From IMG/VR virus record IMGVR_UViG_3300021368_000002: a stretch of DNA of 64,000 nucleotides. One strand, 5' to 3'. The translations under genes and the position numbers were made by a program. Positions 10,747-47,254 of this stretch are shown here, piece by piece; positions within the stretch are counted from its first letter, which is position 1; every line of letters begins with the position of its first letter. Under the pieces are notes generated by a model. It was not told the origin of the DNA. It searched no databases and saw only the letters and a program-made list of their open reading frames with translations. The DNA is from a virus. Taxonomy: Duplodnaviria > Caudoviricetes.

Positions 10747-11706
10747 TTAACTTCCTAATGCGATTGCAAATGCAATGCTATTATTATCTACGTAACTTTT
10801 GTTTGTAAGATCATTAGCACTTGTAGGTGTTCCTGTTGCCGAGACAGTTGTAAATGATCCAGAAGCAGGAGTTGTTGTGCCTATTGATATTCCGTTTAAA
10901 GATCCACTTGTAGCAGTCAAAGCTGTAAAAGTTCCAGCAGCAGGAACAGTTGTTCCTACATCCATATTATTTATTGTTCCTTTAGCGCCGCTATTGATAG
11001 TAAGTGTTCCTGTGCCTGTTGGGATAATTGTGACATTTTGATCTACAGGCTGTAATGTAACTTCACTTGTTGCACTTAGAGTATTTGCTGTGATATCTAA
11101 GCCTGATATAGATCCACTACCAGCACTTATTCTTACAGTTCCTATACCTGTAGGCTGTAATCTAATATCTGCATCAGTGCCTAAAGCATTTAAATTTCCT
11201 GCAACAGTAAGTGTTCTAAAACTTGCGTTACCTGTGATTACAGGTTCTTGAACAGTAATAAGTCCAAAAGGTAATCCATCAGCATCTGAAAATCTAAGTG
11301 TATCAGGAGCATCTACAGGTACATTAAATGTAAATGTTCCTGTTGTTCTATTTTGTGCATCAGCTCCTGTAAAAGTGTTTCCTCCTACAACAACTGAAAT
11401 ACCTTCGTTATACGGACTCGATCCATCTCCAGTTTTTATGTTCCATGTTAGTGTAGATAAAGTAATATCAAAACTATATGTAGAACCTTTTTCTAAAGTT
11501 ATTGTCGGATTATCGCCTACAACGCCCGCAAAATTAAAGCCAGTTCCTGCAATGTTCTGGGTGACTTGGTAATCAGCAGTTGAGTCTTCTTCTTCAATTA
11601 CACTGTATGTAATAGATCTTAAAGTTACGTTACCTTCGTCGTCAACTTCAAACCCTGGACTTTTAAATCCGAACTCTGATTCAAACTTATTATACTGAAG
11701 CGGCAT
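10747..11706 (-). CDS. Virion structural protein (319 aa) with degenerate cupredoxin-like module and C-terminal YVD..IAFAIALG motif
   Basis: NPTITLEKGSTYSFDI...IKT...FNVPVDAPDTL matches the module at ~30140-30460 but lacks His/Cys/Met. SD AGGAG upstream. Confidence 0.6.
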   Translation of the reverse strand: MPLQYNKFESEFGFKSPGFEVDDEGNVTLRSITYSVIEEEDSTADYQVTQNIAGTGFNFAGVVGDNPTITLEKGSTYSFDITLSTLTWNIKTGDGSSPYNEGISVVVGGNTFTGADAQNRTTGTFTFNVPVDAPDTLRFSDADGLPFGLITVQEPVITGNASFRTLTVAGNLNALGTDADIRLQPTGIGTVRISAGSGSISGLDITANTLSATSEVTLQPVDQNVTIIPTGTGTLTINSGAKGTINNMDVGTTVPAAGTFTALTATSGSLNGISIGTTTPASGSFTTVSATGTPTSANDLTNKSYVDNNSIAFAIALGS

Positions 11707-11725
11707 TTATATACTCCTACTAACA

Positions 11726-11733
11726 TATTTATC
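11726..11733 (-). promoter_or_regulatory. T4-late-like promoter GATAAATA
   Basis: Intergenic, 20 nt upstream of ATG 11706. The same 8-mer recurs in four other intergenic regions. Confidence 0.6.
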
Positions 11734-11735
11734 CA

Positions 11736-12146
11736 TTAGATACGTTCTAATAAATTTTGGTTGTTGAAGTAAAATGCATTAACAACTACCTTACTGTTTT
11801 TGACTGCATCTGAAGCGGGTGTTGCTTTTATTGTAACAAATGATTCATTTACTGTTGCACTTAAATTAATTAAATCGCTACCTATAGACGATCTTCCGTA
11901 AACAACTAGTGATGCATTTTCTATACTTGCAGCTACTAAACATTTTATAATTTCTTTATTACGTGTATCAAAGTCACACATAATAGTATATTCAGCAGCA
12001 CAAAAGTCGCCTAAGAAAAATCTATCAATTTCAGTTTCCTGTGGAATCGCTATCCAAGGACCTGTTCTTGAAAGATTTGTATCATTTTTTAATGCAATAG
12101 TATTTTTTCTACCAACTTGTAGAAATTTATCTATAAAGATTGCCAT
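11736..12146 (-). CDS. Small structural beta-domain protein (136 aa), similar to the C-terminal domain of the 2063 aa fibre
   Basis: IDRFFLGDFCAAEYTIMC...LVVYGRSSIGSDLINLSATVNESFVTIKATP aligns by eye with VAEWAVADFRTAKVLIQV...TEYAILFTGSAALAAFSTQVSGGNIELLSTP. SD GGGG upstream. Confidence 0.5.
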   Translation of the reverse strand: MAIFIDKFLQVGRKNTIALKNDTNLSRTGPWIAIPQETEIDRFFLGDFCAAEYTIMCDFDTRNKEIIKCLVAASIENASLVVYGRSSIGSDLINLSATVNESFVTIKATPASDAVKNSKVVVNAFYFNNQNLLERI

Positions 12147-12163: not shown

Positions 12164-12171
12164 TATTTATC
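12164..12171 (-). promoter_or_regulatory. T4-late-like promoter GATAAATA
   Basis: Overlaps the carbamoyltransferase stop codon, 18 nt upstream of ATG 12146. Confidence 0.5.
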
Positions 12172-13939
12172 GCAAGGTAACTAACTTTCCGTACTCAGGC
12201 AAGTACAAGTAATCCAGATCACTTTGTTGTAAAGTCCAAAATGCATCTTCTAATGTTTCTACCAATGGTTCGCCACCTAAATTAAAACTCGTGTTGAAAA
12301 TAATAGGGCAGCCGGTCTTATCTTTAAATGTTTTAATTAGATCATAATAATTTGGATTCTGTTCTCTATTAACAGTTTGTATACGACAAGTACCATCTAC
12401 ATGAATAATAGCAGGAATCTTTTTCTCAATGCCAGGTTGACAGTTTACAGCATACATCATTGTAGGAGACGACTTCATACCACGTAGATCAAACCATTCA
12501 TGTGCATCTTCTTCAAGAATTGATCCAGCAAACGGACGGAAGTATTCTCTACGTTTAACTTCATTCACAAAATCCTTGCCATTAGGATCTGTAGGATCAT
12601 ATAGTATACTTCTGTTACCTAATGCACGTGGTCCATTTTCTGATCTTCCTTGGAAAATACATACAATATTTTTTTCTGTAATTAAATTTACTACATCCTC
12701 ATTAGTAGCGTCTTCTACAGTTGCTCCCCACTCTTCAGCTAAAGTTTCTATTTTATTTGAATAATCGTATTCAAATCCTAAGTACAATATATCTTGTCTA
12801 CCGTTATTTTTTGTAATTTTAGTTAAACTACGCCAATGTAGATATGCTGCACCAATAGCTGTACCGCAATCATTACTTACAGGTTCTACATATATTTCTA
12901 TACCGTCTTTTTGAAGATGCTGCAAATAAAAATAGTTAGCTACACAATTTAATCCATACCCGCCACTTATTACTACTTTTTTATGTCCTGTTAGTTCAAC
13001 TGCTTTATAAATTAAATTTAGAACTTGCTGTTGTGTTTGGGTTTGAACAGCATATGCCATGTCTCTCCTATTTTGTAATAGAGTAAGATCTTGACTATCG
13101 TGGTTGTCTAAATATTCAAAGTGTCCAGAGTTAACAAACGCTCCGTTTGGATAATTAGGAGTTATTATATTTCTATTAGAATATTCGCCTCTATCTGTTT
13201 TTTCAAATAGCGGCGGTATATCATCATTAGGTTTACCGTAAGGAAACAACCCCATTGTTTTTCCTGCTTCAATAAAATCCCAACCACAATAATTTGTTAC
13301 TGCTTCATACGTTTTTGTAATACCAGCTTTTTCAGTTACTGCTAATTCTATAGTTCCTTTTTCGTCGATAAAATCTGCATTACTTTCTTTATTGTAGCTA
13401 CTAAGCATAGGACCTCTTCCGCCTAAGTGCTTGTATTTTGTTTCAAAAATATCAGGATATCTACAATCAAAAATAGACTCAACTTCCCATATAGTTTCAT
13501 ATTCATTTGCAGGAATAAATGTACCTGCGCCATCAACTACGACTGCTGCTGCTTCATCAAACCCACTTCTGTAAAATGCACAAGCTGCATGAAGTTTGTG
13601 ATGATATTTTGCCATATCTATTACTTGGGGATGCTCTCCTGGCATTGCTTGTTTTTGTATCAATCCTAGCTTGCGAGCTAATGCTGTATAAATGTCCTCT
13701 CCTGTAAAGTCATTCTTGCCAGCTGTTTCCTGCAATGGTTGAGTATGAGCAATAACCAACCAGTCTAGTTTATCAGTATATTCTAATATTTTTGTCATCG
13801 ATGCAAGAGGTCCGCCGTCATATTTGACACGACTTAAACGTTCTTCTTCTATACTGAATACAACTTCACCGTCCTTAAGTAATGCAACACTTGCATTATG
13901 TCCTCTTGCTATTGCAGCAATCCATGTACTACTTTTCAT
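12167..13939 (-). CDS. O-carbamoyltransferase, NodU/CmcH/TobZ family
   Basis: GHNASV, EEERLSRVK, HHKLHAACAFY, VVDGAG, EAGKTMGL.PYG, SGGYGLNCVAN, NDCGTAIGAA, GPRALGNRS, VKRREYFRPFA, IHVDGTCRIQTV and FNTSFNLGGEPLVE cover both the Kae1-like and YrdC-like domains. Confidence 0.93.
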   Translation of the reverse strand: MKSSTWIAAIARGHNASVALLKDGEVVFSIEEERLSRVKYDGGPLASMTKILEYTDKLDWLVIAHTQPLQETAGKNDFTGEDIYTALARKLGLIQKQAMPGEHPQVIDMAKYHHKLHAACAFYRSGFDEAAAVVVDGAGTFIPANEYETIWEVESIFDCRYPDIFETKYKHLGGRGPMLSSYNKESNADFIDEKGTIELAVTEKAGITKTYEAVTNYCGWDFIEAGKTMGLFPYGKPNDDIPPLFEKTDRGEYSNRNIITPNYPNGAFVNSGHFEYLDNHDSQDLTLLQNRRDMAYAVQTQTQQQVLNLIYKAVELTGHKKVVISGGYGLNCVANYFYLQHLQKDGIEIYVEPVSNDCGTAIGAAYLHWRSLTKITKNNGRQDILYLGFEYDYSNKIETLAEEWGATVEDATNEDVVNLITEKNIVCIFQGRSENGPRALGNRSILYDPTDPNGKDFVNEVKRREYFRPFAGSILEEDAHEWFDLRGMKSSPTMMYAVNCQPGIEKKIPAIIHVDGTCRIQTVNREQNPNYYDLIKTFKDKTGCPIIFNTSFNLGGEPLVETLEDAFWTLQQSDLDYLYLPEYGKLVTLR

Positions 13940-13941
13940 AA

Positions 13942-14907
13942 TTATGCAGCCACCTGCGGTTTACCATTCCATTTTTTTTGATTGTTAACAACACTCTTAA
14001 CAATAACTTCTTCAATTTTTCCATTCATCACCATAACACCTTCATTAGTTCTATCTGCTAATTCATCTGCTGTAATTCTAATTGGACTATAAACACGAGC
14101 GCCTTCTCCCATGTCGAGTATATCAAAGTACTTACAATCTGGATAACTGATGTTTTCTTTAAATGTGCTTCCTATTACAACTGTGCTAGGAGTTTGCATA
14201 GAATAGGCAATATGTTGACCTACACTATCACATCCTAAGAAATAATCTGCGCAATTTATTATAGCAGCCCATTCTCTAATACTTGTGTTTAAAGGAACAG
14301 CAATAGGCTCGGTTACACCGTATTCATTAAACTGAATAGCAACTTCTCCCATAAACACTACAGCCATTTTTTTACTTAGAGCTTTAACAAGATTAATGAC
14401 AGATTCTGGTTCAAAACTTCTTCCGCTTGGATCCATTATTAATCCTTCTTGATTAACAACTCCCCTGCCGAACGGTTGAAAAACTAATACTTTATCTTTT
14501 TTAGTTTTTTCTTTTACTTCTTTAAGCAACTTAGTTGCCTGAAACATTTCTTCTTTGCCTAAATAAATATTTGGTTTAGGTAAGTCACGTAATCCTTTGT
14601 TGTTAATAGCAATATCATATGCCTGATTTAAGTGTGCTTTTTGATTGTAATATTCCCAAACTCTGTAAGGTTCTGGACTTAACAACTCCATGTCTTTTAA
14701 TTTTTCTTCAAATAGATTCTTATGCCATACGTCATAAGCTCTCTTAAATAAGGTCGGGTGACCTTTATAAAAATCTGTTCCGCCTTCGCATACAATTATA
14801 AAGTCGTCATCAGGATTTTCTTTTTCATATAATTCTAATGCAGGAATGCTAGAAATTACTCTGCCTGCACCACCGTTTATAAAAATAGCTGTATTTCGTT
14901 TGGTCAT
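13942..14907 (-). CDS. GT-B glycosyltransferase, GT9 (heptosyltransferase)-like
   Basis: N-terminal INGGAGRVISSIPAL (GxGD..x..P equivalent), mid LVFQPFG, C-terminal SIREWAAIINCADYFLGCDSVGQHIAYSM..PSTVVIG resembling the GT9 L.ELAALI..A...VG.DSG..H.A.A motif. Confidence 0.6.
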   Translation of the reverse strand: MTKRNTAIFINGGAGRVISSIPALELYEKENPDDDFIIVCEGGTDFYKGHPTLFKRAYDVWHKNLFEEKLKDMELLSPEPYRVWEYYNQKAHLNQAYDIAINNKGLRDLPKPNIYLGKEEMFQATKLLKEVKEKTKKDKVLVFQPFGRGVVNQEGLIMDPSGRSFEPESVINLVKALSKKMAVVFMGEVAIQFNEYGVTEPIAVPLNTSIREWAAIINCADYFLGCDSVGQHIAYSMQTPSTVVIGSTFKENISYPDCKYFDILDMGEGARVYSPIRITADELADRTNEGVMVMNGKIEEVIVKSVVNNQKKWNGKPQVAA

Positions 14908-14951
14908 AAAAAATCCTCTCTAAATATGAAAATATTTATAGAGAGGATCTT
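14908..14951 (-). terminator. Hairpin plus U-tract that also covers the SD of the glycosyltransferase and contains a TATAAATA late promoter
   Basis: Minus strand reads ATCCTCTC-TA-TAAATAT-tttc-ATATTTA-GAGAGGAT-TTTTT-ATG: a 15-bp stem with a 2-nt bulge, followed by a T run and the start codon at 14907. Confidence 0.75.
14933..14940 (-). promoter_or_regulatory. T4 late promoter consensus TATAAATA inside the hairpin 5' arm
   Basis: Exact T4 gp55 consensus, 26 nt upstream of ATG 14907. Confidence 0.7.
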
Positions 14952-14971
14952 AAACTTTAATTAAATATGGC

Positions 14972-15619
14972 TTATTGATCTTCTTCAGTTTCTGGTGGTT
15001 TAATTCCAGCAGTTGGCTGAACAGGAAATAAAACTTCCCAGGGCTCTTTGTCTGCCCAAGTTGAAGGAATATCTCTTAGTTTCTGTCTCCAAGTAATCCA
15101 TTCATTTTTAATTGAATCTGGAACATCTGGTCTAACTCTTGCATCGCTGCCGGCTAATAGAAAATCTCTCGCACCTCTAACATCATCCCAAGTCATATCT
15201 TTAGTTGCAAATGCAAACGTCCATCCTGCAACAGGGTCATATGTAATATCTTCATACCTATGTATTTCATTAGGGCTAGGATATTCGTGTTCCATATGTG
15301 TTTCGTCGTCCGGAGTATCTAGCTCAATCTCTGGTAAATCGCTATCATCATAATCCATAGCAACTATGGTTGCAAGTAACGGCTCATCTGCTGCACTTAC
15401 TTCCACTTTTAGTTCTCCTGGAGGAGGAGAATATGTTTCTCCGTCCATATCAGCAGTCATGTAGGCCCTTGGAGCAAGTTTTCCTGTTTCTCTTTCCACA
15501 AACACCCAAAATCTATCAGGACCTTCATATGTCCAGTCTGCTGTTTTGTTTAATGTTCTAGCTGTTGACCAAATTTTATCTGGTACAGGATAGCTAAAAT
15601 TTACAGTTATATTTGGCAT
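14972..15619 (-). CDS. Tail fibre assembly chaperone-like protein (paralog B)
   Basis: C-terminal TWDDVRGARDFLLAGSD..V.PD.P...K.EW..WRQKLRDIP, typical of phage tail-assembly chaperone domains. Paralog of 17151-17789. Confidence 0.7.
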   Translation of the reverse strand: MPNITVNFSYPVPDKIWSTARTLNKTADWTYEGPDRFWVFVERETGKLAPRAYMTADMDGETYSPPPGELKVEVSAADEPLLATIVAMDYDDSDLPEIELDTPDDETHMEHEYPSPNEIHRYEDITYDPVAGWTFAFATKDMTWDDVRGARDFLLAGSDARVRPDVPDSIKNEWITWRQKLRDIPSTWADKEPWEVLFPVQPTAGIKPPETEEDQ

Positions 15620-15630
15620 ATTATTTTATC

Positions 15631-16365
15631 CTATCTAAATACTAAGTAAACCATTCCACCTGCGCCAGCGCCACCGCAATTACTGCTGCCGCCAAATCGT
15701 CCTGCTGTAAAGCCGCCGCCTCCTGGGAAGTGTCCAAACAATATAGCTCCCGAGCAAGTACAGCAACCGTTAATACCCATAGACATATGTCCTGTCATAG
15801 GTGCACCTGGTTGTACGCTAAATCCATGATTGTAACAATAGCTGTTTGACCACCAAAAGCCTTTATTACCTTGTATACACATAACATTATGTGAATCACC
15901 ATTGTATGATACTGGTGTTGTTTGCAATGATCCACAACATCTGTAACAGTAATGTCCATTACATTGATACCATCCATGACATCCGCCTTGAGCTCTAGCA
16001 CACCATTCGCCATTCAAACATACATATGAGTCAAAGCCGTTCTGACATGATCCAGTGCTTCTGCAACAAGTTGATCCTGCTGCACAAATTATCAGTGTAT
16101 CGCCCGGTGATACAGTTTTTGAACCTGCAATATATCCGCCTGCGTCTGCACCCATACCAATTGTACAGCATTGTCCTCCAGCGCCGGCGCCACCGCCTCC
16201 CCAGATTTCCCATGCTACAACAGTTTTATCTCCAGGAACAATAAATTCACAGCACGCCCCACCATTATTAACAGTTGTAGTGTTAGTATTGTATACCACG
16301 AGTTCCTGCGGAACTACTGCTCCGCCTTCATCATAACCATACAAGTAATCTCTAAGTGTTGCCAT
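15631..16365 (-). CDS. Cys-rich, Gly-rich (polyglycine-II/gp38-like) protein, paralog C
   Basis: 244 aa, 21 Cys by hand count. NNGGACCEFIVPGD..V.WEIWGGGGAGAGGQCC; ends GAGAGGMVYLVF. Confidence 0.65.
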   Translation of the reverse strand: MATLRDYLYGYDEGGAVVPQELVVYNTNTTTVNNGGACCEFIVPGDKTVVAWEIWGGGGAGAGGQCCTIGMGADAGGYIAGSKTVSPGDTLIICAAGSTCCRSTGSCQNGFDSYVCLNGEWCARAQGGCHGWYQCNGHYCYRCCGSLQTTPVSYNGDSHNVMCIQGNKGFWWSNSYCYNHGFSVQPGAPMTGHMSMGINGCCTCSGAILFGHFPGGGGFTAGRFGGSSNCGGAGAGGMVYLVFR

Positions 16366-16377
16366 TATCTAAATTCC

Positions 16378-17139
16378 TTACGATGCTTCCGTTATGTACA
16401 TAATTTGTACCATTCCACTGCCGCCTTTTGCGCCGCAATATCTTGTTGATGTTCCGCCATTATTACTAGCCATACCGCTTGAACCTGGAATAGATTGACA
16501 GTTTCCTTGGCGAGCGTGTCCTGATTCATTTACACATCCGTTTCTACTCCACCAGCCGCCTGTCCATCCATATGGTGCTCCTGGTGCAAAATTTTTAAAA
16601 TGACACTTGTTGCCATATGTCCATTTTGCTTGTCCGTTCATACCGCAAATATGCATTGATGCTCCTGTAACACACCCACAAGCACATTGTCTTATTTGAC
16701 AGTTACCGTAACTACAATGTCCTAAACAAATTGTGCATCCTGGCTGTCCGCCATATGCTCTTAATTCGCAAGTTGAAGCTTTACAAATATAAGAATTATA
16801 TCCCTGTGTTCCTGTACAACCTGTACAACAATTCGTTGTACCGCCTGCACATATTGTCCATTGATCTCCTGGTGTTACTTCAAAAACTTTACGTCCGTAA
16901 CTACCGGCGCCACCAGGCTTGTTTGACCTATTACAACAGGATCCTGCACCTGAACCTCCGCCGCTCCAAAGTTCAACAGCGATCCATGTTACACCTGTAG
17001 GAACTGTCCATAAGCAACATTGTCCGCCATTGTTTACTGTGTTGGTATTTGTATTATAAATCCTTAACGTAGCCATTGTACCATTTGTTGGTGCTGTTGC
17101 TCCTGCGGAATATTCTAACAATGTTCTTAAGCCTGCCAT
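16378..17139 (-). CDS. Cys-rich, Gly-rich protein, paralog B
   Basis: 253 aa, 22 Cys by hand count. NNGGQCCLWTVPTGVTWIAVELWSGGGSGAGSCC; ends GGSGMVQIMY. Confidence 0.65.
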   Translation of the reverse strand: MAGLRTLLEYSAGATAPTNGTMATLRIYNTNTNTVNNGGQCCLWTVPTGVTWIAVELWSGGGSGAGSCCNRSNKPGGAGSYGRKVFEVTPGDQWTICAGGTTNCCTGCTGTQGYNSYICKASTCELRAYGGQPGCTICLGHCSYGNCQIRQCACGCVTGASMHICGMNGQAKWTYGNKCHFKNFAPGAPYGWTGGWWSRNGCVNESGHARQGNCQSIPGSSGMASNNGGTSTRYCGAKGGSGMVQIMYITEAS

Positions 17140-18905: not shown

Positions 18906-18913
18906 TATTTATG
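18906..18913 (-). promoter_or_regulatory. T4-late-like promoter CATAAATA
   Basis: Overlaps the stop of 18909-19229, 27 nt upstream of ATG 18879, followed by SD-like AGGA. Confidence 0.45.
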
Positions 18914-23508: not shown

Positions 23509-23550
23509 CCGGTTCACTCTCCCCTAACTGGCGTTATACAGTTATTTATC
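23509..23550 (-). promoter_or_regulatory. Late promoter GATAAATA (23543-23550) plus conserved leader TTAGGGGAGAGTGAACC (23511-23527)
   Basis: The 17-nt exact match at 47214-47230 sits at the same distance from the ATG. Confidence 0.8.
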
Positions 23551-47211: not shown

Positions 47212-47254
47212 CTGGTTCACTCTCCCCTAAAGTGGCTTATATAATGTATTTATC
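47212..47254 (-). promoter_or_regulatory. Late promoter GATAAATA (47247-47254) plus conserved leader TTAGGGGAGAGTGAACC (47214-47230)
   Basis: Second copy of the element at 23509-23550. Confidence 0.8.

Follow-up and report, generated by a model that had tools for sequence, protein, structure and literature searches.

A hairpin uniting a late-promoter box, a Shine-Dalgarno sequence and a U tract as a putative one-way valve between a tail-fibre operon and a glycosyltransferase gene in a marine T4-like cyanomyovirus

The window, that is the whole 64,000-nt stretch of DNA analysed here, is a minus-strand block of large structural genes from a T4-like cyanomyovirus, and the nearest isolates, S-SSM7, S-SSM6a, S-CAM1/3 and P-SSM2, share only 66-70% nucleotide identity with it. 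Genes in the window are tightly spaced, 2-40 nt apart, and the 64-nt spacer running on the minus strand from the stop codon at 14974-14972 to the ATG at 14907 is among the widest gaps. The features of this spacer and of its surroundings are listed below in the direction of transcription, followed by the late-box motifs of the window.

18906..18913, minus strand: nearest upstream late box, CATAAATA, predicted origin of a tip/chaperone transcript of about 4 kb (late-box placement survey)
14972..15619, minus strand: upstream gene, 215 aa, tail-fibre assembly chaperone-like (Pfam PF16778, E 4e-7; PHROG tail-fibre assembly families), with its stop codon at 14974-14972
14910..14951, minus strand: RNA hairpin of 42 bases, its 18 pairs interrupted by a 2-nt bulge and closed by a UUUC loop (MFE and centroid both -17.1 kcal/mol)
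14941..14946, minus strand: anti-SD CCUCUC, part of the 5' arm and located ahead of the promoter box (sequence and fold)
14933..14940, minus strand: TATAAATA, T4-type late-promoter box, exact match, 25 nt from the ATG
14927, minus strand: predicted +1 (A), first base of the 3' arm, placed by the T4 box-to-start rule (PMC2988020)
14914..14920, minus strand: Shine-Dalgarno (SD) sequence GAGAGGA, carried by the 3' arm at 6-7 nt from the AUG (sequence; P(paired) 1.0 in the long leader)
14908..14913, minus strand: U6 tract, putative terminator tail and SD-AUG spacer (sequence; T5-T6 conserved in L023 and in each of the five close relatives)
13942..14907, minus strand: GT9-like glycosyltransferase (GT-B fold), 321 aa (PHROG 8954, E 3e-146; weak, sub-threshold PF01075 match)
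12167..13939, minus strand: NodU/CmcH-type carbamoyltransferase, 590 aa, 2 nt downstream of the GT9-like gene (PF16861, E 5e-61; PF02543, E 6e-25)
12164..12171, minus strand: next late box, GATAAATA, 17 nt ahead of a 136-aa gene (late-box placement survey)
11732, 12170, 14939, 18912, 23549, 29078 and 47253, minus strand: ATAAATA upstream of starts (placement survey)

An AlphaFold (AF2) model of the 321-aa protein (pLDDT 84, pTM 0.87) had GT9 enzymes as its top PDB matches (3tov, WaaC, WaaF and TibC), and on this model the protein has a GT9 fold. The names given to the gene pair by an initial annotation of this DNA, a GT9-like enzyme and a carbamoyltransferase, agree with this fold and with the PF16861 and PF02543 matches. 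The context of the pair differs from phage to phage. In P-SSM2 (L162:4782-6575) the genes directly behind it carry annotations as heptose kinase/adenylyltransferase, carbohydrate kinase and phosphoheptose isomerase, a gene order that supports a heptose-based glycosylation module. On the upstream side of the spacer, the tail-fibre tip/chaperone genes have their own late boxes at 18913 and 23550, and the unit of the 18913 box would cover a connector, three Cys-rich tip proteins and two chaperones. The transcript of about 4 kb from this box probably runs into the hairpin, and the chaperone-like gene at 14972..15619 would then be the final gene of the late operon that the hairpin would terminate. 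On the downstream side, a scan of both strands of the 64 kb for hairpins with T-runs found no terminator between the transferases and the box at 12164..12171. Both flanks of the hairpin are present in RNA libraries, as a 150-nt metatranscriptome contig matches the glycosyltransferase gene exactly (13987-14136) and a second lies at 16250-16400, these being assembled contigs that carry no end information; no match to the hairpin region itself was found among the metatranscriptome contigs searched.

The hairpin consists of 13 outer pairs (14951-14939 with 14922-14910), a bulge at 14938-37 and 5 inner pairs. The minus-strand letters matched those of the initial annotation, which had drawn a slightly smaller fold. 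By the folding-energy calculation that it had suggested, the 46-nt element has an MFE of -17.1 kcal/mol compared with a shuffle mean of -6.7 (z -5.0), and 0 of 200 shuffles were as good. The structure has the stable stem-loop and directly adjoining U tract of an intrinsic terminator at the end of a unit (-15 to -17 kcal/mol, U6). A simple consensus terminator scan missed the element owing to the bulge, and a purpose-made scan for hairpins with T-runs was used instead. In that scan it ranked first on both strands of the 64 kb (-15.1 versus -10.6 for the runner-up) and was the sole candidate lying between genes; the 60-kb late region contained no second terminator candidate. Only 4 of the 18 pairs are G-C, clustered in the lower half, and the lowest pairs are A-U and G-U; the stem is thus AU-rich, unlike the terminators of relatives, which are rich in G+C. 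Some of the U tract can base-pair with the A-rich 5' flank, and termination may be less efficient as a result. Taken together, we lean somewhat towards the hairpin and U6 terminating transcription. The antisense strand folds almost equally well (-15.9 versus -17.1 kcal/mol), and strand specificity therefore rests on the U tract, the SD and the box. No Rfam family matched positions 14700-15200 at E up to 1, and a covariance model of the hairpin found one copy in the window and one per locus, matching the close clade only.

The 5' arm of the hairpin carries TATAAATA. T4 late promoters lack a -35 element; their 8-bp TATA box precedes the start by about one helical turn, with AT-rich DNA after it, and similar late consensus sequences have been reported in silico for cyanophage S-PM2 (PMC2988020). 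In the window the octamer is depleted, with 2 copies versus 9.7 expected from shuffles, and its occurrence alone is not above chance, whereas its placement is. Seven of the nine ATAAATA copies on the minus strand sit 16-26 nt upstream of start codons, compared with 0-1 such placements for each of 13 control heptamers (2-19 copies each), and the 25-nt distance from the box to the ATG at 14907 is typical of the box class. The coding-strand bias of ATAAATA was 36:5 in S-SSM7, 61:5 in P-SSM2 and 22:5 in the 107-kb contig of the closest relative. The motif is nearly confined to pre-gene positions, which is consistent with selection against stray late promoters in the huge ORFs. Ten of the 11 nt after the box are A or T, and a promoter scan gave no match to a sigma70-type -35/-10 at the hairpin site. 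Most late boxes of the window phage read GATAAATA or CATAAATA. The gene for gp55, described as a cyanophage core protein (PMC3037559), is absent from the 64-kb window. The box had been called an internal late promoter in the initial annotation, and in silico it does fall into a position-specific class; TATAAATA at 14940-14933 very probably acts as a late promoter. Membership of the element in the PeSL cassettes was considered and rejected, as there is no -35/-10 match and the element occurs as a single copy in the window and per locus. Elsewhere in the window, two giant fibre paralogues (23517-23550 and 47220-47254, minus strand) share the same leader, with GATAAATA, a distance of 25-26 nt, UUAGGGGAGA, a GUG start and identical first codons.

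Two kinds of leader were compared. When the long leader, beginning at the upstream stop codon, was folded, the SD at 14920-14914 was fully paired (P 1.0). The short leader, beginning at 14927, had an MFE of -3.3 kcal/mol, a z of +1.1 and an empty centroid, with the SD unpaired. Transcripts begun at the box cannot form the stem because the anti-SD at 14946-14941 lies 5' of the box, and judged from this order of the signals the anti-SD would be absent from box-initiated RNA whatever the exact start. The claim that initiation at about 14927 would free the SD is borne out in silico, as the 3' arm begins with A14927 and the short leader lacks structure. Occlusion of the SD in the long RNA is considered likely.

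To what extent SD sequestration is specific to this gene was assessed leader by leader from P, the probability of the SD being paired to RNA that precedes the predicted start. The median P was 0.76 (mean 0.76) in 35 distinct ATAAATA-bearing leaders of the GT9-like gene and 0.11 in 32 other late-box leaders from the window, the contig of the closest relative, S-SSM7 and P-SSM2 (Mann-Whitney p 9e-7). With the GT9-like leaders collapsed to 14 clades the mean was 0.82 (p 2e-5). A P of at least 0.9 was reached by 40% of the 35 GT9-like leaders, and for 31% it was also true that no more than 2 of 60 shuffles did as well, figures to be read with the leaders being related, the trait patchy (31-40% strong) and the shuffled baselines high (0.3-0.8), so that base composition contributes to the pairing. 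Among the other late-box leaders of the window and its flanks, 1 of 24 reached 0.9. In clade after clade the partner of the SD is a pyrimidine stretch immediately 5' of the box, while the arm sequences differ between clades (L015, L095, L101, L019, L023, L062, L117 and the L126 group).

Two leaders of other genes also came to attention. That of SSSM7_206 in S-SSM7 (L194:1480-1525; NC_015287.1, about 167280-167325) has the same design, with AGACUC, TATAAATA, about 10 nt and GGAGUUU (MFE -15.3, z -1.8), and it is the only other strong case among 34 filtered late-box leaders of four genomes. SSSM7_206 is annotated as an 'endonuclease' with an SNase domain (PF00565) and lies within the petE/PTOX auxiliary-gene region; its arrangement parallels the late-only nucleases in T4 early units. 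In the window, the leader of a 319-aa fibre-like gene (10747-11706; leader 11692-11790, minus strand) places its SD in a long-range helix with coding RNA about 60 nt upstream of a GATAAATA box (MFE -20.1, z -2.2; P 0.97; 0-1 of 30 shuffles). This leader is a second, weaker candidate for read-through silencing.

Conservation was followed in 160 loci encoding homologues of the 321-aa protein (56-75% aa identity), which gave 87 distinct leaders. The five closest relatives (L001, L005, L007, L022 and L009; 72-75% aa identity) carry the stem, the box, the SD, T5-6 and the ATG all in register. In the alignment of the close clade 92% of the stem cells are paired, with 2 compensatory pairs, several G-U variants and 7 invariant pairs, a covariation count that is supportive but small. 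Stem conservation in homologous loci, which the initial annotation had named as one test of its reading, was therefore seen in the form of a kept design with two compensations. A strain about 2% diverged, X7 (a DNA contig), has an unchanged spacer and offers too few sites to be informative. As the covariance model of the hairpin is restricted to the close clade, the family-wide test was done by per-sequence folding.

Four of the five closest relatives carry TATAAGTA in place of TATAAATA. The corresponding ATAAGTA lies before the GT9-like gene at L005:2974, L007:2974, L009:2961, L022:2974, L010:2960, L011:2961 and in their relatives. It keeps the same distance before the gene in the hairpin-less lineage (L010, L011 and others), where the gene follows directly after the upstream ORF in L010 and L011, and the other genes of these loci use ATAAATA. 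ATAAGTA may be a working variant or a weakened box, perhaps a late box that is weak by design or under a different control.

A separate canonical GC-rich terminator lies 40-100 nt before the ATG in 36 of the 87 distinct leaders, and a terminator ahead of the GT9-like gene is therefore regarded as a trait of the family; from these leaders, the gene appears often to begin a new transcription unit. In the six members of the window clade and in L023 the SD hairpin itself carries the T5-T6 tract, and no other terminator was found within 120 nt. On the protein tree this fused form occupies two places, the window clade (100/99 support) and L023, while L019, the sister of L023 (100/96), has a separate GC-rich terminator and an 11-bp SD hairpin without a U tract. 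This distribution gives the fused form at least two origins. In front of the P-SSM2 homologue stand a terminator and then a consensus sigma70-type promoter, TTGACT-17-TATAAT (L162:1812-1840), and timing is therefore not conserved across the family. A further conserved motif, CACTTT(T/G)A(A/C), occurs about 19-20 nt upstream of the late box in many relatives (for example L017:2923-2933, L026, L033, L109-L135) and at 14958-14966 in the window, where CACTTT(T/G)A is not repeated elsewhere. In relatives it reads TTCACTTTGAC directly after a GGCGC..GCGCC terminator and provides a TTGAC -35-like hexamer 17-19 nt before TATA(T/A)A. The TTCACTTTGAC arrangement suggests overlapping sigma70-type and late promoters of a PeSL-like kind.

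From the sequence anatomy, the folding energies, the late-box class and the conservation and recurrence observed here, we propose, with a probability of about 50%, that the element works as a composite 'one-way valve' where one operon of this T4-like cyanomyovirus gives way to the next; that late promoter, SD occlusion and termination are all three present together is evenly balanced. We infer the start site, the termination and the translational block to operate as follows. Late transcripts from upstream, for example from the 18913 box, would cross the tip/chaperone genes and then the whole inverted repeat. The hairpin with U6 would end most of these transcripts just before the AUG at 14907, and termination would leave a protective 3' hairpin on the upstream mRNA. 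In read-through RNA the SD GAGAGGA would be locked by the anti-SD CCUCUC, and no transferase would be translated from structural mRNA. A polymerase with a gp55-type late sigma would recognise TATAAATA in the 5' arm and start at about A14927, and the RNA, being without the 5' arm, would show neither termination at U6 nor a hidden SD. The GT9-like gene and the coupled carbamoyltransferase gene would then be expressed at the level of their own promoter, the transcript continuing to the downstream fibre genes.

Four other explanations were weighed against the one-way valve. The hairpin could simply end the tip/chaperone operon as an ordinary intrinsic terminator, with a late promoter placed inside it to save space; the SD occlusion would be incidental and, read-through being slight, of no regulatory consequence. 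Such a reading, which we regard as possible though unlikely, draws on the element being the best terminator-like structure in the window, on the canonical terminators at the same position in 36 of 87 relatives, and on the covariation of the close clade, which is equally expected of a terminator stem. However, relatives with a separate terminator still pair the SD with pyrimidines just 5' of the box (for example L019, L062, L117, L118, L109 and L089), the pairing is far stronger than at other late-box genes, and about 25 of the 64 nt of the spacer are unused, so that compaction was not forced. Conversely, the element could be a translational gate only, hiding the SD on long transcripts without ending them, in which case the U tract would be an AU-rich spacer between SD and AUG. 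T5-T6 directly after the stem in all six clade members and in the independent L023, with no other terminator within 120 nt, makes this quite improbable, as does the lack of another terminator candidate in the 60-kb late region, although the stem is AU-rich with an A-rich 5' flank, L019, L015 and L095 have the SD gate without the U tract, and AU-rich spacers are common before other genes of the window.

The remaining two explanations question the promoter and the RNA. If TATAAATA were not an active promoter, expression would come from read-through RNA and the hairpin would be an attenuator, a processing site or a stability element. TATA-like runs arise easily in AU-rich stems, four of the closest relatives have TATAAGTA, and in L010 and L011 the gene follows straight on from the upstream ORF and lacks the hairpin; but the 25-nt distance is typical of the class, a box or near-box stands at that position across the family, and a dead promoter together with a terminator and a buried SD would silence an intact, conserved gene, and we hold little brief for an inactive box. 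It is more doubtful still, to the point of being very improbable, that the repeat acts at the DNA level, as a protein operator or as a recombination hotspot flanking a mobile gene cassette in the manner of PeSLs. In its favour, the antisense strand folds nearly as well, the gene pair occurs in different contexts in different phages, and PeSL terminator/promoter cassettes mediate shuffling in T4-like phages (PMC2839356, PMC4122927). Against a DNA palindrome stand the single copy per locus and in the window, the site having no sigma70-type -35/-10, the G-U variants, which preserve pairing on the sense strand only, and the location of the U tract, the SD and the box, all on the sense strand.

For the one-way valve, the setting bears on what it would be used for. 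The initial annotation had described the transferases as strictly late and uncoupled from upstream transcription. That they are strictly late and silenced early is not supported, since the upstream tip/chaperone genes have late boxes at 18913 and 23550 and read-through RNA would also be late. The T4 logic of preventing early synthesis of a late protein is inapplicable because the upstream unit is itself late, and the element probably serves to insulate an enzyme cassette within a structural operon or to set its dosage, not its timing. Nor does the gate appear to concern the transferase pair alone, as had been claimed, given that no terminator follows the carbamoyltransferase gene and that the next genes have late boxes ahead of them, at 12171 and 11733. 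Tentatively, and with less confidence than the valve itself, we suggest that the fused valve evolved at least two times from a separate terminator and gating hairpin, that it insulates a virion-glycosylation cassette from the surrounding, strongly expressed structural operon by way of dosage, and that its logic recurs at other genes, for example at the SNase-type endonuclease gene of S-SSM7.

The underlying principle is well established for T4. The window element departs from it in being fused with a terminator, in following a unit that is itself late, and in its repeated use by marine cyanomyoviruses. A limited literature search, which is not proof of absence, found no published description of such a hairpin in cyanophages. 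If the valve is real, the T4 device of a late promoter in an SD-hiding hairpin also works in ecologically dominant marine cyanophages, is usable inside a late operon for insulation or dosage instead of timing, and can be combined with a terminator in a single minimal element. Expression of the GT9-like and carbamoyltransferase genes would then be that of a separate late unit. Such elements would aid in drawing operon boundaries and in predicting the expression of auxiliary enzymes in uncultured cyanophage genomes, and would offer synthetic biology a compact, direction-dependent insulator part.

I-TevII/III, segB and Aeh1 mobE are grouped with the T4 inhibitory leader hairpins. The T4 precedents named in the initial annotation, genes e, soc, 49 and I-TevI, are real: on transcripts started upstream their SD lies in a helix, and the late promoter TATAAATA lies in or at the 5' strand, so that late RNA is free of this strand and is translated (PMC3014915, PMC2988022). 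The window element resembles them in silico in having its SD in a stable helix on the long RNA (P 1.0, -17.1 kcal/mol) and a late box placed so that the predicted late RNA loses the 5' strand. It differs in that the T4 genes lie in early/middle units, where the hairpin delays translation, whereas the upstream unit in the window is late; in its U6 tail and in being the sole terminator candidate at the boundary; and in that the host is a cyanobacterium and the element is known from sequence alone.

The box itself is like T4-type late promoters, which depend on gp55, gp33 and gp45, in its 8-bp TATAAATA, its AT-rich downstream segment, the absence of a -35 element and the position about 20-30 nt before start codons (PMC2988020), and differs in that the boxes of the window phage are mostly GATAAATA or CATAAATA and the gp55 gene lies outside the window. 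Like the PeSLs, the element joins a promoter to a stem-loop terminator within a short intergenic stretch bordering a variable gene cassette (PMC2839356, PMC4122927). PeSLs, in contrast, have a sigma70-type early promoter after the terminator, occur in multiple copies and have been implicated in shuffling, whereas the promoter in the window is late-type and inside the stem, and the element is single-copy and without -35/-10. A likeness in gene and layout is found in the L019-type cyanomyovirus leaders, which precede the same gene and have the same order of signals, with the anti-SD just 5' of the box. There, a distinct GC-rich terminator stands 30-60 nt further upstream of an SD hairpin without a U tract, whereas in the window clade one hairpin would serve for both.
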